From the NCBI GenBank assembly GCA_963706025.1, contig CAVPLM010000005.1, positions 480,001 to 544,000 on the forward strand: a DNA stretch of 64,000 nucleotides. Direction: 5' to 3'. This document shows positions 29,533-44,406 of this stretch, one piece after another; position 1 is the first letter of the stretch; each line of letters begins with the position of its first letter. The stretch is from an uncultured Actinomycetes bacterium (lineage in GTDB: Bacteria > Actinomycetota > Thermoleophilia > RBG-16-64-13). The notes under the pieces are model-generated. The model had not been told where the DNA came from. It saw nothing but the letters and a program-made list of their open reading frames with translations, and did no database searches. The translations under genes were made by a program, and so were the position numbers.

Positions 29533-30999
29533 TCAGGCCCCGCTGGACCATTCACCCAGGGCGAGGGAAGCCGCAGCGTCGATCCCCAGGTAGGTGGGAT
29601 ACTGAAGCCTCGGGCCGCTGAGCGCCGCCGCTCCGATCATGGCCGCATTGTCGGTGCAGTAGGCTAGAGGCGGCACCACCACATGAAGCCCGGCCCCCTC
29701 CCCAGCTTCCAGCAGCCGGCGGCGCAACAGTGAGTTGGCCGCCACTCCTCCTGCCACCGCGAGGGTCTTCACTTTCTCTCGCTCCGCCGACAGGAGGGCC
29801 TTGCTCACGAGCGCGGTGACTATGGCCTGCCGGTACGACGCGGCCACGTCAGCCGCCCTTGCGATGCGCTCCTCGGCGGTCATGTCACGCAGAAGGTAGT
29901 AGAGCGCCGTCTTCACTCCCGAGAACGAGAAGTCAGGCCGGGGCGAACGCTTCAGCCCTATAGGGAAGGCAAAGGCCCCTGGGTCACCTTTCTCCGCCAG
30001 TTCGTCCAACTCCCGTCCGCCGGGATAACCCAGCCCCAGCAGGCGGGCTCCCTTGTCGAACGCTTCGCCGGCGGCGTCGTCGAGGGTCTGCCCCAGCAGC
30101 CGGAACGTCCGCCGGTCATCCACCCGGATGAGGGCGGTGTGGCCACCCGAAGCCACCAGCGTCACCATGGGGAATAGGGCCTGCTGATCCGCCAGCCACA
30201 CGGCTGCGAGGTGGCCATGAATGTGATTGACGGGGAAGAAAGGCAGCCGCCGGCTCCACGCTATGGTCTTCGCCGTCTGGACCCCCACGAGCAGCGCCCC
30301 GATCAGCCCCGGCCCCACGGTGGCAGCCACCGCGCCAAGATCGGCGATCCCGCAGCCGGCCTGGCGCAGGGCTTCGCGCACGACCGCGGTCATCCGCTCA
30401 ACGTGCGCACGGCTTGCCACCTCAGGGACCACACCGCCGTAACGCGCATGTATAGCGTCCTGGGAATGCACCACCGACGCCAGCACGTCTCCCTCCGCAG
30501 TGAGTACTGCAGCCGCGGTGTCGTCACATGAAGTCTCTATCGCGAGCACGGGCCCTGAAAGCCGTTCGCGGAGCATCACGACCGCGTCCTCCTGAGTGTC
30601 GCTGTAGTAGCCGCGCCGGGTCGCGATGCTCCGGAATCCCACTCCTCCGTACATCGCCACCGCCGCCTCGTTCCCTGGGCGGACTTCCAGGACCACCTCC
30701 ATGCCGGCCGCGTCGGCAGCGCGCAAGAAACGGGCGAGCAAACGTCCTCCCGCGCCTCGCCGCCGATGGGCGGGCGCAACGGCCAGGTCCATGAGGTGCC
30801 ACACATCTGGATAGCGACGGCCGATGATAAAGCCGATCACTTCGCCGCCCGGTTCGACTGCCACCTCTCTCCAACTCAGATCGTGCGATAGCTCCTCCCG
30901 GAACATCTCCTCGGTCCAAGGTAGATTGAAGGATGCAGCCTCGATGGAGACCACGGCCGCCAGGTCCTCAGCGCGCATGTCCCGTGACGAGGTGTCCAC
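29533..30999 (-). CDS. tsaD: RimI acetyltransferase fused to t6A synthase TsaD
   Basis: N-terminal GNAT ([23 protein letters not shown]) then [47 protein letters not shown]. Confidence 0.93.
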
Positions 31000-31983: not shown

Positions 31984-32461
31984 GGGTGCCGCCCGACCTT
32001 TCCCACCGACTCCTGGCGTCCGACGTGGCCCCCTCGATCTCGATGGAGCGTCTATGAGGACTCTCGTGCCCGATACGAACGATCCAAGAAGGCGGGCCCA
32101 GGCGCGCTACACCGGCCTGCGGCCACTCCACCAGAGTCACCGCGTCCGCCCGCACGTACTCCTCAAGGGCAAGGGCATCTTCAGCGCCGATCTCCTCCAA
32201 CCGGTAAAGGTCCAGATGTTGCACCGTCACCGAACCGCGATAGATGTTGGCGATGGTGAACGACGGACTCCTGACCGGGTCCGCGACTTCAAGAGCCGAG
32301 GCGATCGCACGCACCAACGTGGTCTTACCCGCACCCAAGGGGCCATAGAGAAGAACCAGATCACCAGGAAGAAGCGACCGAGCCAGCCTGTGTCCGATCT
32401 TCTCCAGCCTTCTGAGCCTCACACCCTGCTCGCGCAGCACGACCTGACCGGTGGTTACCAC
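31976..32461 (-). CDS. tsaE: t6A modification ATPase TsaE
   Basis: GPLGAGKTT, SPSFTI, HLDLYRL, VEWP. Confidence 0.93.
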   Translation of the reverse strand: MVTTGQVVLREQGVRLRRLEKIGHRLARSLLPGDLVLLYGPLGAGKTTLVRAIASALEVADPVRSPSFTIANIYRGSVTVQHLDLYRLEEIGAEDALALEEYVRADAVTLVEWPQAGVARLGPPSWIVRIGHESPHRRSIEIEGATSDARSRWERSGGTHV

Positions 32462-33189
32462 AAATGCAGTTGCTCTACGCGTTCCGGAGGTTTTCGAGGC
32501 TGCTCGCGCGGGCCGACGTCGGGCCGATCCGAGACCTCCTCCCCACGGTCAGGGCCGGCGTCGGTCGCCTGCACTGGTGACGCCTCCAGACCGTGTTCGA
32601 GGAGATGGCGCAGCTTCGCGAAATCCTCTTCCAATACCTGCCGGTTGGCGGGCGTGTACAGGGCTGCCGCCGGATGGAACACCGGGAAGATGACGGTGTC
32701 CACGCCGGCCAACAGCCTCTCTTTGGCTTTTCCATGGAGGGCCGTCATGCTGAGTTCGGTTTCTGCCAAAAGCTTGGTGGCAAAGCGACCCAACGTGCAT
32801 ATCACCTGGGGCCGGATGGTCGCGACCTGCTTCATCAGGTGGGGGCTGCAGGCATCGATCTCGTCAGGCAGCGGATCGCGATTCTCAGGTGGCCTGCACT
32901 TCACCACGTTCGCGATGTACACGTCGTCGCGGGTGAGCCCGATCTGACCGAGCAATTCGGTAAGGAGCTTGCCCGCTTGGCCGACGAAAGGCTCACCCAA
33001 GCGATCTTCGTGGAATCCGGGGCCCTCGCCCACGAACATGAGCTTGGCTTCGGGGTTTCCGACGCCGAACACCACCTGGGTCCGTCCCCGGCTCAGCCCA
33101 CACAACGTACACTCGCGTAAAGACTCCTTCAGCGAGTGCAGGGTCTCGGCTGGGTCCTTACCCCCGTAAGTGATCTCCTCTTCGCTCAT
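32455..33189 (-). CDS. family 4 uracil-DNA glycosylase ([4Fe-4S])
   Basis: [36 protein letters not shown]. Confidence 0.93.
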
Positions 33190-33301
33190 GGTGCCCAGGG
33201 TAGCAGATGACGGTCGCCTGGGAGACCGCCCGGGGGCCCTCTGGATTGCCGTCGGCACCAGCTCTTGTTATGCTACGCGCTCTGGCGGCCGCGAGGATCA
33301 G

Positions 33302-33505
33302 ATGGATGCCTTGACACCGGAAGGCCTACCGCGAGGAGGCGAAGCCGAGGGCATCATCGTTCGCCGATCTCTCCCGGTCCCAGGGAAACGACCGAGCCAC
33401 GTCTGGTATCTGCGGGCAGAACTGGAACAGGCAGGTGTCTCATTAATGCTGCGCCCACATCTGAAGCAGTCGGCGCCAAAGGACCATACGCCCCGGTCCC
33501 GGTGA
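33302..33505 (+). CDS. small hypothetical protein
   Basis: ATG after GAGGA; its TGA overlaps the GTG of the next gene (GTGA). Confidence 0.45.
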   Translation: MDALTPEGLPRGGEAEGIIVRRSLPVPGKRPSHVWYLRAELEQAGVSLMLRPHLKQSAPKDHTPRSR

Positions 33506-34890
33506 TCGATCTCACCACTTCTCAGTTCGCGGTGATCGGCGCCGGGCGTCTTGGCTCCAGTCTTGCCCTCGCCCTGCGTTCTCGGGGTGCACACCTCGCC
33601 GGCTTCACCTGTCGGTCGCCGGAAGGCCGCTCCCGGGCAGAAGCCCGGCTGGGACAACGAGCGAGCGCCGACATCCACGAGCTGGTGTCTTGCTCGCCCC
33701 ATCTCTATTTCATCGCCGTGCCCGACGACGTCCTGCCCGAGGTGGCCGACGAGCTAGGCGGGGAACTGGGCTCGGCTAGGGCGGTGAATCGCGACGCGCC
33801 GCTGGTGCTCCACACCAGCGGCGCCACGTCGGTCGCGGTCCTGTCCCCCTGCGAGCAGGCCGGGGCCGTCACTCTCGTCTTTCATCCTTTGCAGACCTTT
33901 CCCGACCCGGTCGGCGGAGCGAACCGCTTCGCCGGCGCGGCGATCGCCGTCACTCCTGCTTGCGGAGGCGTGGACTCGCCCGGGGCTTCGTTCGGTTTCG
34001 CGCTCGCGCGGTCGCTGGGAGCCCGGCCCTTCTTCCTCTCGGATGACAAGCGCAGCCTGTATCATGCCGCAGCCACCCTGGCCTGCAACTACTTCGTCAC
34101 CCTCGAGCACCAGGCGGAGCAGCTCTTCATCAAGGCGGGGCTGGACGAACAGGAGGCGCTGGCCCTCTTCTTGCCGCTGGTCAACGCGACGCTCGAGAAC
34201 CTTCGCTCTCAGGGTTCGGTGGCGGCCTTGACCGGACCGCTGAGCCGGGGAGACGCGCATACGGTCGGTCTGCACCTTACCGCTCTGGCGAACGAGGCAC
34301 CCCGCCTGCTCCCCCTCTACCGGGTCCTCGGCCTGGCCACTCTCGATCTCGTCCGGGCCCGCGGCGACGTCGACCCCTCGGTGATCGCCGAACTCACGGA
34401 TTTGTTAGGCAGACACACAGACGGAGAGGATCCTAGTATGACAGCGGCAACTACGGTTTCGGGTCCGGTAACGGTGGTCACCGACCGCCTGTATTTCGAG
34501 ACTCAGGGGAACGCCGACATGGTCAACCTCACCGACAAGGTACGCCGGCTCGTAGAGGCGACCGGCCTCCAGGCCGGCACGGTCACTGTGTTCTTCCCGG
34601 GAGCCACCGGGGCCGTCACCACGCTCGAGTTCGAGCCGGGGGTGGTGCAGGATTTCCGGAACCTGTTCGACAGGATAAGCTCCCCGGCGGAGCACTACGA
34701 GCACAACGTTACCCACCCCGATTTGAACGGTCATGCTCACGTCCGGGCAGGGCTCTTGGGTCCCTCTCTGGTCGTGCCTTTCGATGACGACGGACTCTGC
34801 CTCGGCCGCTGGCAGGAGATCTGTTTCGTCTGTTTCGACAACCGTCTCCGGGAACGCACGGTCATAGTTCAGACTCTTGGCGTTCGCTAA
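33502..34890 (+). CDS. Rossmann-like/DUF2520 oxidoreductase (PanG-like) read in frame into a YjbQ/UPF0047 domain
   Basis: IGAGRLG, AVPDD, HTSGA, HPLQTF, LYHAAA, LTGPLSRGD; from Met 34438 YjbQ motifs EFEPG, NGHAH, LGRWQEI. Confidence 0.85.
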   Translation: MIDLTTSQFAVIGAGRLGSSLALALRSRGAHLAGFTCRSPEGRSRAEARLGQRASADIHELVSCSPHLYFIAVPDDVLPEVADELGGELGSARAVNRDAPLVLHTSGATSVAVLSPCEQAGAVTLVFHPLQTFPDPVGGANRFAGAAIAVTPACGGVDSPGASFGFALARSLGARPFFLSDDKRSLYHAAATLACNYFVTLEHQAEQLFIKAGLDEQEALALFLPLVNATLENLRSQGSVAALTGPLSRGDAHTVGLHLTALANEAPRLLPLYRVLGLATLDLVRARGDVDPSVIAELTDLLGRHTDGEDPSMTAATTVSGPVTVVTDRLYFETQGNADMVNLTDKVRRLVEATGLQAGTVTVFFPGATGAVTTLEFEPGVVQDFRNLFDRISSPAEHYEHNVTHPDLNGHAHVRAGLLGPSLVVPFDDDGLCLGRWQEICFVCFDNRLRERTVIVQTLGVR

Positions 34891-34925
34891 GAAGGTTCCG
34901 CTATCTATACGAGGAGGACGACCTC

Positions 34926-36212
34926 ATGAAACCGGTACTGCAATTGGCTCTCGACTTCGTCGACCTCCCCCGCGCCCTGCAGGTGGCCGAAGAAGCGATC
35001 GCCGGAGGGGCGGACTGGCTGGAAGCCGGCACTCCTCTGATCAAGAGCGAAGGTCTGCAGGCCATCCGTGAGCTCAAGGCCCGTTGGCCCGACGTCACCA
35101 TAGTCGCCGATATGAAGACCATGGACGCAGGCCGCACGGAAGTGGAGTGCGCCGCCAAAGCCGGCGCCCGAGTGGTGGGAGTGCTGGGCGCGGCTTCAGA
35201 CGCCACCATCGCGGAGTGCGTGGAGGCTGCCCGCAACTACGGGGCCGAGATCGTCGTGGACATGATCCAGGTGCCCGATGTGGTGGCTCGCTGCATAGCC
35301 GTCCAGGAGACGGGCGCCAGCTACGTGGGCATCCATGTCGCCATCGACGAGCAGATGCAGGGCAAGGCTCCCTGGGATACGTTGCGGGAGGTAGCCAGGG
35401 CCGTGTCGATACCGGTGGCCGTGGCGGGAGGCATCAACTCCGAGACCGCTCCCCTCGCTCTGCAGGCTGGGGCTTCCATCGTAGTCGTGGGCGGCGCCAT
35501 CACCAAGGCCGTCGATGCCACGGCCGCTACCAAAGCGGTGAAGCAGGCCATGGAGACGCTGTTGTCTGTGAAATCGGAGTACTTCGTGCGGGCCACCGGC
35601 CCTGATCTGCGCAAGATGCTGACCCGCGTGTCGACGGCCAACGTCTCCGACGCCCTGCATCGTACCGGAGACCTCCCCGGGCTGCGGCCGTTGACCCCTG
35701 GGTCCAAGCTGGTCGGACCCGCGCTCACCGTCCGCACCGCCCCTGGTGACTGGGCCAAACCAGTGGAGGCTATCGACAAGGCCGAGCCGGGGGACGTCCT
35801 GGTCATCGACGCAGGCGGCGTCCTCCCCGCGGTATGGGGAGAACTGGCCACCAACTCGGCGATAGAGAGAGGGGTGGCCGGAGTGGTCATCTTCGGAGCG
35901 GCCCGTGACACCGGCGATATCCGGTCCCTCGGCTTCCCGCTTTTCTCCACTCTGGTGTCCCCCACTGCCGGGGAAGCCAAGGGCTTCGGCGAGATCGGCG
36001 TGCCGGTCCGTATCGCGGGAGTGCGCGTTTGCCCCGGCGACTGGATCGTCGGGGACGACGACGGTGTGTGCGTCATCCCTCGGGAGAAGGCAGTGGAGTA
36101 CACCAACCGGGCCATGGACGTGCTCGAAAGGGAGAACCGTCTCCGCTCGGAGATCCAGGCCGGCAGCACTCTCAGTCAGGTGGGCTACCTGCTTAGGTGG
36201 GAGAAGAAGTGA
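34926..36212 (+). CDS. hxlA: 3-hexulose-6-phosphate synthase fused to an RraA/HMG-aldolase-like domain
   Basis: LQLALD, LEAGTPLIKSEG, DMKTMDAG, AVAGGI; C-terminal STANVSDA, VWGEL, GAARD, PGDWIVGDDDGV. Confidence 0.9.
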   Translation: MKPVLQLALDFVDLPRALQVAEEAIAGGADWLEAGTPLIKSEGLQAIRELKARWPDVTIVADMKTMDAGRTEVECAAKAGARVVGVLGAASDATIAECVEAARNYGAEIVVDMIQVPDVVARCIAVQETGASYVGIHVAIDEQMQGKAPWDTLREVARAVSIPVAVAGGINSETAPLALQAGASIVVVGGAITKAVDATAATKAVKQAMETLLSVKSEYFVRATGPDLRKMLTRVSTANVSDALHRTGDLPGLRPLTPGSKLVGPALTVRTAPGDWAKPVEAIDKAEPGDVLVIDAGGVLPAVWGELATNSAIERGVAGVVIFGAARDTGDIRSLGFPLFSTLVSPTAGEAKGFGEIGVPVRIAGVRVCPGDWIVGDDDGVCVIPREKAVEYTNRAMDVLERENRLRSEIQAGSTLSQVGYLLRWEKK

Positions 36213-36268
36213 ACAACGTCCCTCACGACTGCGCGCGCTGCTGATACGTCGGGGGAACGACGGCTCCC

Positions 36269-36847
36269 ATGTCCATATTCCGGTGGACCGCCCCCATCTT
36301 CAAGCTGACCGGAGGTCGCTGGTCGGAAGATGACTTCCGGGTGGTGGCGGGGTGGCTCCGGCCCTTCGTGACTCCCAACGGGGTATTCATGGACCTTGGA
36401 GGCGGGACCGGCTACCTGGGCGCCGGCGTGGCCCGGGCCCTCCACGCCCAGGTGGTGATCGTCGACTCCACCCCACAGATGCTGGCCCGTGTTCCGGCGC
36501 AGACCCTTGTCTCCGTGCGACTCGCGGCCGCGGAGGAACTGCCGTTCCCCGACGCCCACTTCGATGCCGTCCTCTGCTCCGACGCCTTCCACCATTTCCG
36601 TGATACAGAAGCGGCGGTCCGTGAGATCAGGCGCACCGTCCGGCCGGGCGGAGGAGTGGTGATACTGGAGATGGATAGGACCGGAGGTGGACGCCTCATT
36701 GCCGCCCTCGAACGGCTGGTAGGGGAACCGGCCGGATTCAGGACCCCCGTCGAGCTACAAGAATACCTGGCGGCCCGCGGTGTATTCGGGACCAGCGCCC
36801 CCCAGGGTCGGATCAGCTACGCCTTCATCGGAGCCGTTCACGATTGA
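36269..36847 (+). CDS. class I SAM-dependent methyltransferase
   Basis: DLGGGTG, AEELPFPDAHFD, AFHHF, RPGG. Confidence 0.88.
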   Translation: MSIFRWTAPIFKLTGGRWSEDDFRVVAGWLRPFVTPNGVFMDLGGGTGYLGAGVARALHAQVVIVDSTPQMLARVPAQTLVSVRLAAAEELPFPDAHFDAVLCSDAFHHFRDTEAAVREIRRTVRPGGGVVILEMDRTGGGRLIAALERLVGEPAGFRTPVELQEYLAARGVFGTSAPQGRISYAFIGAVHD

Positions 36848-36909
36848 CAGAGGGTGGCGGTAAGCTGGCGTCGGAAAGACCGAGCGCATTGCGGGATAGG
36901 AGAGGTGCC

Positions 36910-37761
36910 ATGACCGATATACCGACCACGCCGATCACGGGGGCGACAGCTCTCGCCGGCCAGACCGCCCTGGTCACGGGCGCCGGCAGCCCTGCAGGCA
37001 TCGGTTTTGCCACCGCCCGGCTCTTGGGCGGTATGGGAGCAGCGGTGGCGGTGGCCTCGACCACCGAGCGAATACACGAACGCGCCGCCGAGCTGAAGAG
37101 CGAGGGCGTCGAGGCCTTAGGCCTGGTGGCCGACCTGACCGAACCGTCCCAAGTGGCAGCCCTGGCGGCCGCTGTGGGGGCGTGGCGCCCGGCAGTCGAC
37201 ATCGTTGTCAACAACGCCGGCATGGTCTCGCTCATCAGCGGCTGGGATGCCGAGAAGCCCCTCGAGGACCTGACCCTCGCCGAATGGGATGAGGCGCTCG
37301 CCCGGAATCTGCGTACCGCCTTCCTGGTGACACAAGCCTTCCTGCCTGGGATGAAAGCCCGCAAGTACGGAAGGATAGTGTACGTATCGTCGACTACGGG
37401 ACCTTTGGTGGCGATGCCTCTCCAGTCCACCTATGCGACCGCCAAGGCCGCCATGGTGGGGCTAACACGTGCCCTGGCCCTCGAGGTGGCCCAGGCCGGC
37501 ATCACGGTCAACGCCGTGGGTCCGGGATGGATCGCAACCGCCTCGGCCACCCCTGCCGAGGCGGAGGCTGCTCTGGCGTCACCGCTGCGTCGAGCCGGGA
37601 CCCCGAACGAAGTCGCCGCGCTCATCGCCTTCTTGGCTTCGCCGGCGGCCTCATACGTGACCGGGCAACTGGTGATCGTCGACGGGGGCAATTCGATCAT
37701 CGAGGACAAAAGCTCGTCTCACAATGACGCTTTACCGAATGGGTGCGATCGGCACGAGTGA
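36910..37761 (+). CDS. SDR family oxidoreductase
   Basis: TGAGSPAGIG, NNAG, YATAK (YxxxK), VNAVGPGWI. Confidence 0.92.
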   Translation: MTDIPTTPITGATALAGQTALVTGAGSPAGIGFATARLLGGMGAAVAVASTTERIHERAAELKSEGVEALGLVADLTEPSQVAALAAAVGAWRPAVDIVVNNAGMVSLISGWDAEKPLEDLTLAEWDEALARNLRTAFLVTQAFLPGMKARKYGRIVYVSSTTGPLVAMPLQSTYATAKAAMVGLTRALALEVAQAGITVNAVGPGWIATASATPAEAEAALASPLRRAGTPNEVAALIAFLASPAASYVTGQLVIVDGGNSIIEDKSSSHNDALPNGCDRHE

Positions 37762-37831
37762 GGCGAGGAGCTCTAAGGCCCACCCCTGAGCTTCGCCGCC
37801 GATTCTGCTGCTCGATTCGGGTGGCCGGACC

Positions 37832-38680
37832 TCAGCCGGCCAACGTGATGTTGTCGATCAGCCTCGTATCGCCGAACCAGACCGCCACAGCGATAAGACA
37901 CTCTCCCCTCACGGTCACTACCGGCGAGAGATCGGCCTTGTTGACTATCTCCACGTAATCGATCCGCCCCAGAGTCGCTTCGGCCAACACCGAGCGCACG
38001 GTGCCGTCCAGCACGGCTGCGTCACGCTCGCCGCCGTGTAGCAGCTCTCTCGCTGCCAGGAGTGCGCGGTAGAGAACGGGAGCTTCCTGCCGCTGCTCGG
38101 CGGTCAGGCGCGCATTGCGTGAGCTCAGGGCCAGACCGTCCGCCTCGCGTACGGTGGGACAGGGAACGATTTCCACCGCCAAGTTGAGATCGCGCGCCAT
38201 CCGCGTGACCACCACCAGTTGCTGGGCGTCCTTCTCGCCGAAATAGGCCCGGTCCGGACGGCAGATGTTGAGGAGTTTCGTCACCACGGTGCACACCCCG
38301 CGGAAGTGCCCGGGCCTTGATCTTCCACAGAGCCCGGCGGTCAGTCCCTCCAGATCCACCCACGTAGAGTAGCCTTCCGGGTACATCTCGAGCACGGATG
38401 GAGCGAAGATCAGGTCCGCCCCCGCCGCCGCGGCCAAATCTCGATCGTGCTCCAAAGGCCTGGGGTAGTGCCGCAGGTCCTCGCCCTGCCCGAACTGCGT
38501 CGGATTGACGAATATCGACACGATGACGACCCCGCCGTCCGCCCTGGCCTTGCGAATCAGAGAGAGGTGTCCCTCGTGCAGCGCCCCCATGGTGGGCACC
38601 AGTCCCACCGTCAGTCCGCGGGCGCGCGCCTGCTCGAGCGCGGCCCGCGTCGCAGCAGTGGTCGTCAGACAGCGGCTCAC
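37832..38680 (-). CDS. panC: pantoate--beta-alanine ligase
   Basis: VPTMGALHEGH, FVNPTQF, SRPGHFRGV, FGEKDAQQ, GLALSSRN, RLIDN. Confidence 0.97.
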   Translation of the reverse strand: MSRCLTTTAATRAALEQARARGLTVGLVPTMGALHEGHLSLIRKARADGGVVIVSIFVNPTQFGQGEDLRHYPRPLEHDRDLAAAAGADLIFAPSVLEMYPEGYSTWVDLEGLTAGLCGRSRPGHFRGVCTVVTKLLNICRPDRAYFGEKDAQQLVVVTRMARDLNLAVEIVPCPTVREADGLALSSRNARLTAEQRQEAPVLYRALLAARELLHGGERDAAVLDGTVRSVLAEATLGRIDYVEIVNKADLSPVVTVRGECLIAVAVWFGDTRLIDNITLAG

Positions 38681-39633
38681 GTCACGGACGCAAGGTCCTT
38701 CAAGGCCGGTGCTCCGCCGAGACCTTCCGCCACCCTCACTGCCCTACGAATGCTCATCGCCACAGCCTCGGCTGCGGCAGCCCCCACCTGGAACACGTTT
38801 GACGGTCTCTCGCCGGTGGCGAGAACGAACACGCAGTCCCCATCGACCGGCGTATGCACCGGATTGATCGCCCGGCCAAGTCCATCGTGACTCATCCGCG
38901 CCACGATCGAGCAATGCAGCTTGTCCATCTTGGCGTCGGTCAGGACGACCGACAGTGTGGTGCTCTCCATTGCCGCGAACGTCGGCGCCTCAGGCAAGGA
39001 AAGCAATAGTCTCGCGCTGTCCACGAAGGCATTGTCTCGCCTGGCACCGGCGAGGATGGCGCCATTTTCAGCGATTACGTCCCCGAGGGCGTTGACGACG
39101 GTCAAGGCGGCGACCGTCACCCCCCCGCCCAGAACCACAGTGGACAAGGCCAGGCCTCCCTTCATGAGACCACCCGCGCCCAGGATCTTGCCGACCGTGG
39201 CCCCGGTGCCGGCGCCCACCGAGCCCTCCTCGACGTGGAACCCCGCCGAATCGCAGGCCTGGTAGGCGTCCTCGTAGCTTGGGCAGGCCTGCGCGCTACC
39301 CAGTCCCAAGTCGTATATGACGGCCGCCGCCACCAGAGGAACCCGGGCGTACGGGGTGCGGTAACCGCAACCGCCCTCGCGCAGAAACGCAGTCACACCG
39401 GCGGCCGCCCCCAGCCCAGGGGCGCTCCCACCGGTCAGCAACACGGCGTGGATCTCGCCGACTGCGGCAAACGGCGACAGCAAAGCCGTCTCCAGAGTCC
39501 CCGGCGCACCGCCACGGATATCTACAGAGGCCGTCACCCCGGCAGGAGTGAGGATCACCGTGCATCCCGTCAGGCCCTCACGGTCAGAGAAATGACCGAC
39601 TGAGATCCCTTCCACCGGGAGCGCCAATGTCAT
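38677..39633 (-). CDS. P1/S58 (DmpA-like) peptidase
   Basis: [34 protein letters not shown] (self-cleavage/nucleophile region), PVHTPVDGD. Confidence 0.9.
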
Positions 39634-39691
39634 GTCCAAACCCGTCCCTCGAGCCGATGCCTGCCGGCCTTCACCCGACCCATCCCGGCCG

Positions 39692-41038: not shown

Positions 41039-42052
41039 CTATCTCGCGTCTAGGCTCACCCGCGGCCCTCCGTTACCCGCCCGGTGTATCGTCCTTACCA
41101 CACGTATCGCGTGACAGCGGGAGCAGAGAAGAAGCGTCTCGGAGCGTACTCCGTCGGAGCGGACATCTATGCCCCGCAGGAATCTGCCTCCGGTGACCGC
41201 GGTGGCCACGAATAGCACGCCATCTCCGGCCATGTCGCTCGTGGTCAGACGCGTCTCGATGTCCTCGATACCCGCGATCCTCACCTGCTCAACCTGATGA
41301 CGGGAGACCGGCCAGAAGCGGGCCTGCATCTCGCCCCCCAGACAGCGCAGGGCCGCGGCCGTCATGATGCCTTCGGTGGAGCCTCCGATGCCCACATACA
41401 AGTCGACACCGGCATCTCGCGTCGCCGCAGCGATGCCCGCCGACACGTCACCGTCCGCTATGAGTCTGAGCCGCGCGCCTGAACGCCTGATCTGAGCTAT
41501 CAGATCCTCATGGCGTGGCCGGTCGAGGACGACCACGTTGAGGTCGGCGGGCCGCCGTCCGAGGGCGGCGGCCACTGCGTTGATATTGTCGCCCATGGGA
41601 GCGTCGATGTCGATGGCCGCGGCCGCCTCACCGGCCACGATCAGCTTCTGCATGTACATCTCCGGCACGGCCATGATGCTGCCAGGCGGTCCGGCGGCCA
41701 GCATGCACAAGGCACCGTCCAGGCCGTGCCCCAGGGCGGCATGGCCCTCCAGCGGGTCCACCGCCAGATCCCATATCCCCTGTGGGTCTTCTTCGCTCCC
41801 CGGACCCACTTCGTGGCCCACTTCGTCTCCCACACACAGAGCACTGGACGGCTCTGTGGCTCCGTGACCGGTCACCACCCGTGCCTTGAACGGTGCCGGC
41901 ATCTGAGCAAGCTCAGCCGCCATGGCCTCTCTCGCGGCCTCGTCGCCAAGCAGGCCATCTCCCCTGCCTGCCCACTCGGCAGCCGCAAGACCACCGGCTT
42001 CCGTTACCAGCGCGAAGCGACCACAAATGCACCGTCCCTCAATAGTCCCCAC
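41039..42052 (-). CDS. glpX: GlpX-like class II fructose-1,6-bisphosphatase homolog with degenerate motifs
   Basis: VTEAG, AVDPLEG, YMQKL, LDRPRH, DGDV; GTG start after GAGGAG overlapping the 2PGK end. Confidence 0.8.
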   Translation of the reverse strand: MGTIEGRCICGRFALVTEAGGLAAAEWAGRGDGLLGDEAAREAMAAELAQMPAPFKARVVTGHGATEPSSALCVGDEVGHEVGPGSEEDPQGIWDLAVDPLEGHAALGHGLDGALCMLAAGPPGSIMAVPEMYMQKLIVAGEAAAAIDIDAPMGDNINAVAAALGRRPADLNVVVLDRPRHEDLIAQIRRSGARLRLIADGDVSAGIAAATRDAGVDLYVGIGGSTEGIMTAAALRCLGGEMQARFWPVSRHQVEQVRIAGIEDIETRLTTSDMAGDGVLFVATAVTGGRFLRGIDVRSDGVRSETLLLCSRCHAIRVVRTIHRAGNGGPRVSLDAR

Positions 42053-43019
42053 TGCCCAACTCCTCAGTCTGTTCGATGAGACCATACAAGGCGTCGACGA
42101 CCATCCCCACCGTGTCGTCGATGCTCACGTTGTCCACGACAAGTGTCCCTTCGGCTCCTGCCCGCTCAAGGATGAATTCCTGGATCTTGCGTATCTCCTC
42201 GAATCCCTTCAGGTAACGAGCAAACACCCTGCGCCCAGATGTCTCCTGCTCCCTCACCAAGAAATGGCTACGATGCAGATGCGAGTCGGTCACGGCCACG
42301 ACCAGGGGAAGCAAGAGAGCCTCCCCGCTCCGCTCTCGAGCTCCGATCGAGGCGAGCATCCCGGGAACCATGTGCACACCCTCCACTACCAGGCTGGTGC
42401 GCTCCTCTATCGCCCTATCCAACACGGCCAGCACACCGACATTGACCATCTCCACCTGCTCCATGAAACCTATCAAGTTCGAGTCTATGCCGACGCGCAA
42501 CGGGATCCGAACAGCCTTGTCCGCGTCGTACGACGAGTAGTGGATTGCCGGCATGAGGCTCTCGGAGAAGAAGGCCCTCATCACCTGCCGAATGGCGTCG
42601 GTGGAGATGATCCTCACCACCCCAAGCCGCTCCGCCACCTGGGCGGCGATCGTACTCTTGCCCACCCCGGTGGCTCCTCCGATCAGCACGATGACCGGCA
42701 TGTCCTCTCTAGCCAACCGATTCCAGGCGCGGTAGCGCTGCAGGTACCGTTGCCCTTCGCTCTCAGCCAACACCAGCTCCACCATCTGGCGTAGCCGGTC
42801 CACGCTCACCTCGCGGTCGAGCCCCTGCAGCAGCTGCCACTCCACATCCATGGCCACCCCAAAGGCCCTTTCCGGCGGTAGCCCGGTGGCGGTCAACGTG
42901 GTTGCCAGCAGTCCCTTCGAGAAAGGCACCTTGTGACCCTCTCTCACCAGTTGGATGGGGAAGTTCTCCGGCCTGGAAAGCCTGGCGCCCGTGTCTTGCC
43001 GGCCTTCGCCGCTGCCCAT
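42039..43019 (-). CDS. pgk2: 2-phosphoglycerate kinase (ATP-cone plus P-loop)
   Basis: PFSKGLLATTLTATG ATP-cone, GGATGVGKST, STDAIRQVMR, EGVH; adjacent to cpgS. Confidence 0.88.
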   Translation of the reverse strand: MGSGEGRQDTGARLSRPENFPIQLVREGHKVPFSKGLLATTLTATGLPPERAFGVAMDVEWQLLQGLDREVSVDRLRQMVELVLAESEGQRYLQRYRAWNRLAREDMPVIVLIGGATGVGKSTIAAQVAERLGVVRIISTDAIRQVMRAFFSESLMPAIHYSSYDADKAVRIPLRVGIDSNLIGFMEQVEMVNVGVLAVLDRAIEERTSLVVEGVHMVPGMLASIGARERSGEALLLPLVVAVTDSHLHRSHFLVREQETSGRRVFARYLKGFEEIRKIQEFILERAGAEGTLVVDNVSIDDTVGMVVDALYGLIEQTEELGSGDY

Positions 43020-43023
43020 CCCG

Positions 43024-44406
43024 CTACACCCGCTTCTCGAAACGCGTTCTTGCCAACTGAGCCAACTCCTCCGCCACCTGAGCCAGACGCCCCTCGTGTC
43101 CGGGCGACACCTCGACAGGAAGGTTGTCGACGAACACCACTTCAAGTCCACGTGCTTCGGCTTCGGCGGCCACCATGTCGATGGCCGCAGCCTTGATCTC
43201 CGTCAGAACCGCGTCCACCCGCCCCATCTCCGGCCGCTCTAGATCGGCGCGCAATTCCGGCCGACTGGAGAGGTTCCCCGAGAACAGCTCCACTCGGCAG
43301 CCCCAGCGCTCCTCCATGTACCGCCTCAGCAACCCCTCCTGGACGCGAGGCGCCGAGGAGAAGAAGGCTACCCGTCTACCCTCGACCGGCTGCGCCGGGT
43401 GCGGCCTGAACACGACGGGAAGGACCTCTAACCCCGGTTTGACCTCGTTCACCGCGTCAAAGACTGCGCGCACCTTCTCCCTCGACGCTAGAGGCTCCTC
43501 GGCCATGGTCAGCACCAACGCATCGCTGGTTAGCAGGCGATATGTCCCCAGGTATCCGGCGATGTGTTCCACCGGCTGCTGGGCTCCGGCCACCAGCAGG
43601 CGCGCATCTGTGCCGACGGGCGGCAGAGTCGCCCCACTGCCCTCAAAGATCACCAGACCCGGGGCCAGGCTGTTGGCCAGTCGCGCCCCGGCAGCCACAT
43701 TTGAGACGAAGGGCTCTCCGGCCATGCCCCCGCCACATCTGCGGCACCCTACGGTCACCACCCGGCTAAGGACCGCATCCTCGAAGTGATCCGACGCCGC
43801 GTGCCGGCCCTCCCGACTCCAGGCCAGAAGATCCTCGACAGTCAGACCGACCCGAGCCCCGTCGATGATCTCGGGTTCCGCAGGACCGCCGCGCCCCATC
43901 GCCACGACCACCACTTCGTGCGCGTCTTCCCTGGTCGCCAAGCCCCGCAAGACCCGCGCCACGTAGCCGCTGATCGCCGTTTTGCCCACCCGCTTCCCCG
44001 TCCCGACGACGGAAAGCGAAGGACTTGCGCAAAGATGATCTGAGCTTGTAGGGCTGAAGTGGAAATCCGGACCAACGTAGCCTACGTTCCGCGCCAAGCT
44101 GTGGCTGATGAGACGGAAACGCACCTCGTATCCTAGCACCGGCTCATCGCTCAGGTCAACGACCACCTCCGGATCGAACATCTCGATGGCCCGGCCCAAG
44201 CCTCGGCTCAGATCCGGGTCGAACACTACAGGCAGACCATAGATTCTTTCGGCCGCAGCCTCTAGGTCATCGTCCCTGATCTTCTCGAACCCACCTAGGA
44301 ACAGGGCGCCCCGGAACTCGAAACGCTCCGCGGCTTGTCGTAGGGCGTCGACCACCACCGACGGATAGTGCTCCCCATCGATCAGAGCGACGGCCGGCTG
44401 CTTCAT
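43024..44406 (-). CDS. cpgS: cyclic 2,3-diphosphoglycerate synthetase
   Basis: LIDGEHYP, DLSDEPV, GTGKRVGKTA, MGRGGP, HAASDHFEDA, GCRRCGGG, EGSGA, EIKAAAID. Confidence 0.88.
   Translation of the reverse strand: MKQPAVALIDGEHYPSVVVDALRQAAERFEFRGALFLGGFEKIRDDDLEAAAERIYGLPVVFDPDLSRGLGRAIEMFDPEVVVDLSDEPVLGYEVRFRLISHSLARNVGYVGPDFHFSPTSSDHLCASPSLSVVGTGKRVGKTAISGYVARVLRGLATREDAHEVVVVAMGRGGPAEPEIIDGARVGLTVEDLLAWSREGRHAASDHFEDAVLSRVVTVGCRRCGGGMAGEPFVSNVAAGARLANSLAPGLVIFEGSGATLPPVGTDARLLVAGAQQPVEHIAGYLGTYRLLTSDALVLTMAEEPLASREKVRAVFDAVNEVKPGLEVLPVVFRPHPAQPVEGRRVAFFSSAPRVQEGLLRRYMEERWGCRVELFSGNLSSRPELRADLERPEMGRVDAVLTEIKAAAIDMVAAEAEARGLEVVFVDNLPVEVSPGHEGRLAQVAEELAQLARTRFEKRV

Follow-up and report, generated by a model that had tools for sequence, protein, structure and literature searches.

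A yjbQ/hps-rraA gene pair in the panB position of an Actinomycetota pantothenate locus

The pantothenate locus of an uncultured Actinomycetes bacterium of the Thermoleophilia (GenBank assembly GCA_963706025.1) encodes a UPF0047/YjbQ domain and, directly behind it, a fusion of hexulose-6-phosphate synthase (HPS) with an RraA-like domain. The locus lies in a window of 64,000 nucleotides, which is the whole stretch of DNA that was analysed (contig CAVPLM010000005.1, positions 480,001 to 544,000). Probably this yjbQ/hps-rraA module does the work of PanB and supplies ketopantoate. What was observed here are the genes present, their domain families, the conservation of catalytic residues, the position in the operon and a phyletic distribution complementary to that of panB, and the argument has its weight because the same pattern is found in three unrelated lineages, because panB and the module share one operon slot and because none of the relatives is without both genes.

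To our knowledge the synthesis of pantothenate and coenzyme A is generally regarded as completely known. There are nevertheless many genomes with panC or its archaeal equivalents in which a gene for the formation of ketopantoate is missing, and this gap has been noted for methanogens. The fusion is a concrete and clonable candidate that occurs in eight phyla or more. If the proposed role is true, reconstructions of metabolism in which such organisms appear as pantothenate auxotrophs would have to be corrected, a folate-independent C-C bond-forming step would be added to vitamin biosynthesis and the widespread annotation as 'bifunctional HPS/ribonuclease regulator' would be explained. It would also offer two naturally coupled enzymes for 2-oxo-acid chemistry with formaldehyde and a new enzyme solution for one step of a known pathway. 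A literature search (supplementary files were outside the search) returned no paper that links HPS-RraA/MenG fusions or YjbQ to ketopantoate.

Pantothenate genes of the genome

All counts of PanB and PanD in this work come from profile searches of whole genomes. In the assembly under study (30 contigs, 92.29% complete, 7.31% contamination) neither PanB (PF02548) nor PanD (PF02261) gave a match, and PanE/ApbA (PF02558) gave none above the cut-off. An earlier sequence-only reading had noted that panB, panD and panE are missing from the window; this absence extends to the whole assembly, and no normal panB is present on any of its contigs. IlvD, which is needed for the synthesis of 2-ketoisovalerate, was found.

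The same reading had taken the DUF2520 gene of the locus for a PanG that replaces PanE, and this assignment is supported: the gene has the Rossmann-like plus DUF2520 architecture of PanG and stands in a genome in which PanE was not found. A passage of PMC4684696, which refers to Miller et al. (2013), describes FTT_1388 (PanG) as a DUF2520-type ketopantoate reductase. In difference to FTT_1388, the panG of the window, a predicted ketopantoate reductase gene, is joined in one open reading frame (ORF) to the YjbQ domain.

The module stands in the place of panB in a conserved operon

The proteins of the window were compared by tblastn with 20 loci of related genomes; the public loci are the best 80 from the public genome collection. 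YjbQ is encoded directly upstream of the fusion in all 20 loci of the relatives, and in all of them panG adjoins either yjbQ-fusion or panC. Clustering with pan genes recurs in 28 of the 80 public loci, where panC lies beside the fusion and which are all of the Actinomycetota type. The co-location of the fusion with panG/panC, proposed earlier as a check, is therefore found in many genomes, and the clustering is not due to chance.

It had been cautioned that panC of the window is on the opposite strand and that the clustering might be coincidental. In family f1 panG is located upstream of YjbQ, and S58-panC converge from downstream. However, in two sister families the fusion and the pan genes are on one strand, in the order panG-panC-yjbQ-fusion (f3) or panC-panD-yjbQ-fusion (f6), which removes the concern about the opposite strand.

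Throughout the class the locus is arranged as tsaE-udg / (panG)-panC-(panD)-X. In the families without the fusion X is panB, namely in f2 (G025, G030, G035, G040), f4 (G027, G032, G037), f5 (G028, G038) and f7 (G033). In f3 (G026, G031, G036) and f6 (G029, G034, G039) X is yjbQ + hps-rraA. The genes udg and tsaE border the pan locus in fusion genomes and panB genomes alike. Genome G017 of family f1 has udg / panG and then converging panC-S58-rho, which is the layout of the window minus yjbQ, fusion, methyltransferase and short-chain dehydrogenase (SDR) genes; its panB is located on another contig. The presence of yjbQ + hps-rraA at the panB slot is the classical picture of a non-orthologous displacement in place. 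PanB and the fusion have the operon position after panC/panD, a complementary distribution and, as proposed, the product ketopantoate in common. There is no kinship in sequence or fold, the domains of the fusion belong to other families, and it would be an analogue of PanB only.

A second linkage of the fusion to pan genes is found in Desulfobacterales. In four of 18 loci of the type in which the fusion is accompanied by 6-phospho-3-hexuloisomerase (PHI), a PanG-type gene (Pfam DUF2520, 129-132 bits) divergently adjoins phi-hps-rraA.

The fusion and panB are distributed in a complementary manner

The relatives comprise 41 genomes, this one and 40 others. An intact fusion is present in 27 of these, of which 21 have no panB, five have panB and one (G019) has panB in five pieces. 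All 14 genomes without an intact fusion carry panB, and none of the 41 lacks both; panC was found in 40. In G011, which has panB, the genes for PanG, the fusion and S58 are broken, and seven other genes of the locus are intact. The panB in five pieces of G019 was not counted as decay, since rho, glpX and tsaE are likewise split in that assembly; it is perhaps an artefact because of these other frameshifted genes.

In a sample of 121 Desulfobacterota a full-length fusion occurs in ten genomes, all of them among the 18 without panB, and it is absent from all 103 genomes with panB; the remaining eight have neither. All ten fusion genomes have panC. Where Desulfobacterota have HPS or the RraA-like gene only as a separate gene, panB is always present. 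The third sample consists of 61 archaeal genomes, for which the phylum label Altiarchaeales was taken from the record titles. Here 54 genomes have the fusion and no panB, one (G221) has both, four have panB only and two have neither. The archaeal phosphopantothenate synthetase was present in four of five Altiarchaeales genomes checked. The anti-correlation of fusion and panB that the sequence-only reading had asked about is borne out, as the two genes are complementary in three unrelated lineages.

In addition, 50 further fusion genomes were searched, from Desulfobacterota, Omnitrophota, Firestonebacteria, Elusimicrobia, Planctomycetota, Armatimonadota, Geothermincolia and one archaeon (two are shared with the Desulfobacterota sample). 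Among these, 47 are without panB and three have it, and panC is present in 44.

Both domains of the fusion are likely to be enzymes

The fusion is collinear with the family model NF005442, 'bifunctional HPS/ribonuclease regulator', over its full length (residues 2-428 on profile positions 3-429 of 430). Its score of 568.5 bits is just below the curated cut-off of 593; full-length fusions of other genomes score 517-642 bits. The mean column identity of the family is 72% (32 sequences from seven phyla). The family name carries no pantothenate role.

The HPS domain is above the cut-off of TIGR03128 (HxlA; 218 bits against 200, residues 5-209). In the 32 sequences D10, E33, D62, K64 and H137 are invariant, which we take to be the conserved Asp, Glu, Asp-x-Lys and His of the barrel of the HPS/OMP-decarboxylase suprafamily. 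In the aldolase half R327, D328 and E401 are invariant, and E306 is kept in at least 90% of the sequences. An alignment with the HMG/CHA aldolase 3noj (E 4.7e-25) places R123, D124, D102 and E199 of the latter on R327, D328, E306 and E401, presumably the catalytic Arg-Asp pair and the acidic residues of the metal site. In the AlphaFold model of the fusion (pLDDT 91.9, pTM 0.83) the HPS half superimposes on 3f4w and 3ajx with TM scores of 0.93 and 0.92, and the aldolase half on 3noj with a TM score of 0.80 and an rmsd of 2.9. The aldolase domain is below the cut-offs of LigK/PcmE (TIGR02798, 104.7 bits against 304.5) and of RraA, the regulator of RNase E (NF006875, 66.1 bits against 136). The conserved residues and the model support that both domains are enzyme-competent.

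The domain shares fold, Arg-Asp pair and acidic residues with the HMG/CHA aldolase/oxaloacetate decarboxylase group (3noj; LigK/PcmE). In difference to 3noj it is fused to HPS and has a conserved C-terminal helical extension, and its nucleophile would be 2-ketoisovalerate and not pyruvate. Structure searches found no solved structure with this pair of domains. The same two-domain architecture is known as HPS-MenG (Mhun0647) from Methanospirillum hungatei, and the function of its second domain is stated to be unknown in the part of Kono et al. (2017, PMC5241800) that deals with this protein. There are other cases in which HPS is fused to an enzyme that makes its substrate or takes its product. 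The Fae-HPS of methanogens combines HPS with a formaldehyde-consuming enzyme, as described in the same part of PMC5241800, and an HPS-PHI fusion is available as PDB 9lj9. In the fusion of the window, however, the partner is a class II 2-oxo-acid aldolase and neither Fae nor PHI.

Proposed route to pantoate

Ketopantoate is 4-hydroxy-3,3-dimethyl-2-oxobutanoate, the aldol adduct of formaldehyde and the enolate of 2-ketoisovalerate. It is a 4-hydroxy-2-oxo acid and therefore a product of the type made by class II 2-oxo-acid aldolases. Formaldehyde additions to 2-oxo acids are the subject of biocatalysis papers (PMC10127515, PMC7611260, PMC7610986).

We lean towards a pantoate-synthesis module of yjbQ, hps-rraA and panG that would do the jobs of PanB and PanE by way of hexulose-6-phosphate and formaldehyde. 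The HPS domain would split D-arabino-3-hexulose 6-phosphate into ribulose 5-phosphate and formaldehyde, and the fused metal-dependent aldolase domain would add the formaldehyde to the enolate of 2-ketoisovalerate to give ketopantoate. PanG would then convert ketopantoate to pantoate, which PanC would join with beta-alanine. Such a route would work without methylene-tetrahydrofolate: the one-carbon (C1) donor of PanB is 5,10-methylene-tetrahydrofolate, whereas the formaldehyde used by the fusion would come from a sugar phosphate. We infer here both substrates, the direction of the reaction, the channelling between the domains and the action of YjbQ. The idea of a folate-independent PanB substitute, with formaldehyde passed from HPS to the aldolase, had been put forward in the sequence-only reading. 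The substitution is strongly supported by comparative genomics (panB slot, complementarity in three lineages), whereas the chemistry is deduced, and the lineage has no recognisable PHI.

A wider claim can be made only tentatively and is somewhat less probable than the route for this genome. YjbQ and the HPS-aldolase may together be the enzyme that makes ketopantoate in anaerobic bacteria and archaea that have no panB, perhaps including methanogens, with the hydroxymethyl group derived from a sugar phosphate and not from folate. This would be the first physiological role for UPF0047/YjbQ.

YjbQ, PHI and the source of the C1 unit

No other gene accompanies the fusion as constantly as yjbQ, which lies directly upstream of it in 43 of the 80 public loci, from five phyla. 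In this genome (G000) as well as in G008 (locus L027) and G023 (L028/L043) panG and yjbQ form one ORF; they are separate genes in the other three genomes of the same genus as this one. No indel was present at the panG-yjbQ junction in contigs of four public runs, and none of the 24 listed substitutions creates a stop. The read-through in this population is not an assembly frameshift.

The genome has a second, more canonical UPF0047 copy (contig C3:260886-261221) with 140.8 bits, compared to 99.8 for the copy in the pan cluster. Two YjbQ copies were also found in four of five genomes of other phyla with yjbQ upstream of the fusion (YjbQ-type), and the fusion-adjacent copy always has the lower score. 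In the tree the fusion-adjacent copies group together, separate from the second copies of the same genomes (5/5). The fold agrees with 2p6h (Z 19.6, rmsd 1.3, 134 residues aligned), and the fold search beyond the own family gave nothing above Z 5.1. For E. coli YjbQ side activities only are given, and the function is listed as 'Unknown', in the relevant passage of PMC3010111. By family models (Pfam, TIGR00149) and fold the domain of the window belongs to UPF0047/YjbQ, and it is a distinct paralogue that accompanies one and the same gene in five phyla.

In Desulfobacterota a bona fide PHI, with 171-183 bits for TIGR03127 (cut-off 160), is encoded directly upstream of the fusion. PHI is a direct neighbour in 19 of the 80 public loci, and it was found in four of five Altiarchaeales genomes checked. 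In the Desulfobacterota and Altiarchaeales with PHI, fructose-6-phosphate can, judged by these genes, feed the system. For the supply of hexulose-6-phosphate in the other genomes YjbQ would be the obvious suspect; the evidence that it replaces PHI is weak.

A simple analogy of YjbQ and PHI was considered, and the data give no more than a hint of it. Upstream of the fusion either YjbQ (43 of the 80 loci) or PHI (19) is encoded, never both in this set, but this alternation tracks a single clade of the fusion tree. The PHI-type genomes carry one to three YjbQ copies, of which four of 12 fall in the 'adjacent' clade, and therefore YjbQ and PHI are no simple alternatives. In a deltaproteobacterial locus (L187, 4716-5955) a UPF0047/YjbQ gene lies divergently next to phi-hps-rraA. 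Both can therefore accompany the same fusion.

These data bear on another explanation, in which the module replaces PanB by other chemistry or with another C1 source. YjbQ could for example deliver or release the C1 unit or make a sugar-phosphate donor in a way unlike PHI, and the HPS-like domain could be a carrier or buffer of formaldehyde. We regard this as unlikely, and still as an explanation to be taken seriously. It would fit the lack of PHI in the lineage and in other YjbQ-type genomes, the constant place of YjbQ upstream of the fusion, its separate clade and its joining to panG in one ORF. The position of YjbQ-type loci among folate and Wood-Ljungdahl genes (FolD, AcsE-like, CdhD) and the low HPS activity published for the fusion of M. 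hungatei, which is given below, point in the same direction. However, the HPS domain is above the HxlA cut-off and has kept all invariant residues, and PHI itself adjoins the fusion in other loci. Against a special C1 chemistry of YjbQ are also the locus with both YjbQ and PHI, the PHI-type copies in the 'adjacent' clade, an alternation that tracks a single clade of the fusion tree and a fold that gives no functional hint.

Weighing of the evidence and further alternatives

A number of observations weigh against the replacement of PanB by the hexulose-6-phosphate/formaldehyde route. The fusion and panB coexist in five relatives (six if the split panB of G019 is an assembly artefact), in the archaeal genome G221 and in three of the 50 further fusion genomes. 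Of the eight Desulfobacterota with neither gene, five have panC and three do not. Fisher tests of fusion versus panB gave values of 3e-7, 3e-10 and 1e-4; they count kindred genomes as independent and therefore overstate the case. In a PanC tree, which covers 27 of the 41 relatives, the fusion state changes only five times and panB seven times, and an independent-pairs test on this tree had no power (two pairs on supported branches, median p = 1). Apart from Actinomycetota and some Desulfobacterales, pan genes are not found beside the fusion, and in Omnitrophota, Planctomycetia and Elusimicrobia it is located among Wood-Ljungdahl/folate C1 genes. PHI (TIGR03127) is above the cut-off in none of the 41 genomes of this lineage and in none of the five YjbQ-type genomes of other phyla, and therefore the known route to hexulose-6-phosphate is missing exactly here. 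For the fusion of M. hungatei an HPS activity of 0.21 U/mg was measured, about 30-fold below the 6.05 U/mg of Fae-HPS (Kono et al., 2017, PMC5241800, in the part on these enzymes). Finally, this genome has two serine hydroxymethyltransferase genes, and therefore a lack of folate, which was considered as the cause of the replacement, is ruled out as an explanation here.

The missing pan linkage in most phyla and the C1-metabolism context in several of them could also mean that the fusion is a general formaldehyde/pentose-phosphate enzyme of the reverse ribulose monophosphate type. The panB-less genomes would then import pantoate or pantothenate, and the gene order would be due to hitch-hiking. 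A second HPS-type gene in most of the archaeal (Altiarchaeales) genomes agrees with such a general role. We consider this improbable, as the pair takes the place of panB in a conserved operon, three lineages show the complementarity of fusion and panB, and genomes with a stand-alone HPS keep panB. Moreover, panC and panG are retained, panC in 44/50 and 10/10 fusion genomes, and import of pantothenate would leave panC useless.

HPS normally favours the fixation of formaldehyde. The aldolase domain might accordingly cleave a 4-hydroxy-2-oxo acid and free formaldehyde, which HPS, together with PHI if present, would fix into sugar phosphate in a catabolic or detoxifying pathway. The order phi-hps-rraA in Desulfobacterota fits this direction equally well. 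However, it leaves unexplained why panB is replaced in a biosynthetic operon and why panB is lost while panC and panG are kept, and without PHI the fixation would stop at hexulose-6-phosphate. Only a slight chance is given to this direction. That the C-terminal domain regulates ribonuclease activity and is not itself an enzyme, as the name of NF005442 and the distant similarity to RraA suggest, is hardly credible, because it scores far below the RraA cut-off, is closest to the aldolase 3noj with the Arg-Asp pair and the acidic residues kept across phyla, and is present in archaea.

S58 peptidase and beta-alanine

An S58 peptidase gene lies upstream of panC in all 15 family-f1 genomes examined (loci L023-L034, L218, L219). 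NCBIfam models gave no match to the S58/P1 (DmpA-BapA type) peptidase. Judged by its family, a beta-aminopeptidase-type S58 enzyme coupled to panC could supply beta-alanine. In ten of the 15 f1 genomes with S58-panC panD was not found. It is present in the other five, and a role of the peptidase as strict substitute of PanD is not supported by this coexistence. The fusion as a PanD substitute is ruled out: 11 of the 27 genomes with an intact fusion and eight of the 14 without one carry panD, which shows no complementarity.

Layout of the locus

The genes are listed in Table 1. The sequence-only reading had named panC, the DUF2520 gene, the HPS-RraA fusion and the P1 peptidase, and all four are confirmed by profile matches between 33502 and 39639; the YjbQ domain, the methyltransferase and the SDR had been overlooked. 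The S58 peptidase gene and panC are downstream of rho and converge on the side of the fusion; udg and tsaE are divergent and upstream of panG. The DNA of the locus is of high GC content (about 0.65). A scan for promoters and terminators found no promoter-like site and eight terminator-like sites, compared to 3.2 expected; none of the eight is located between the SDR gene and panC.

Table 1. Genes and domains of the pantothenate locus (positions in the window)
Feature	Position	Strand	Evidence
ORF panG-yjbQ, Rossmann-like + DUF2520 followed by UPF0047/YjbQ	33265..34890, likely start GTG 33502	+	Pfam, TIGR00149
panG-type part (Rossmann-like + DUF2520), predicted ketopantoate reductase	33502..34437	+	PF10727 61.2 bits, PF10728 108.5 bits
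UPF0047/YjbQ domain, no stop between panG and domain	34438..34890	+	PF01894 95.8 bits, TIGR00149 71.4 vs cut-off 67.75
HPS-RraA fusion, 428 aa	34926..36212	+	PF00215 (OMPdecase/HUMPS) + PF03737 (RraA-like), NF005442
HPS half of fusion	34926..35570	+	PF00215 116 bits, residues 4-204; TIGR03128
RraA-like / HMG-CHA-type class II aldolase domain of fusion	35571..36212	+	PF03737 163.5 bits vs cut-off 24.5, residues 237-383
Class I S-adenosylmethionine (SAM) methyltransferase, between fusion and panC	36269..36847	+	PF08241 76 bits
SDR, between fusion and panC	36844..37761	+	PF13561 188.6 bits
panC, pantoate-beta-alanine ligase	37832..38680	-	TIGR00018 337.2 bits vs cut-off 212.75
S58/P1 family peptidase, 4-base overlap with panC	38677..39639	-	PF03576 122.3 bits vs cut-off 23.9
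udg, uracil-DNA glycosylase, divergent boundary of pan locus	32455..33258	-	PF03167 128.4 bits

A SAM methyltransferase gene is present downstream of the fusion in eight of the 20 loci of relatives and absent from the one-strand operons of f3 and f6. In many f1 loci (L027, L029-L035, L037, L040-L042, L044, L045, L048), and not in other phyla, a UbiE-like SAM methyltransferase gene follows the fusion. The SDR was found at this place in one of the 20 loci only (L033). In the spacer between fusion and methyltransferase gene one base, at position 36266, is absent in contigs of three of four public runs.

Other gene neighbours

The surroundings of the fusion in other phyla were read from L065 2765-10401, L110 2811-10408, L086 6325-9284 and the downstream genes of L070/L064. 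In Omnitrophota and Planctomycetia yjbQ-fusion is located within a Wood-Ljungdahl set of RACo, a CooC-like ATPase, CdhD and a pterin-binding methyltransferase. In an Elusimicrobia locus the pair directly follows folD, and in Firestonebacteria HdrCBA-like genes come after it. An archaeal locus of the Altiarchaeales type (L116 1574-5920) encodes an ATP-grasp protein, a radical SAM protein and a TIGR03123 protein ('H4MPT-linked C1 transfer pathway', 334.7 bits against a cut-off of 244.1), followed by the fusion.

Two further proteins are encoded on the minus strand of the window. A 488-aa ORF (29533-30999), which adjoins tsaB and tsaE, resembles by its translation a GNAT/RimI-type acetyltransferase fused to TsaD. 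Next to glpX a 370-aa protein with ATP-cone and P-loop kinase-like domains is encoded (42039-43151).

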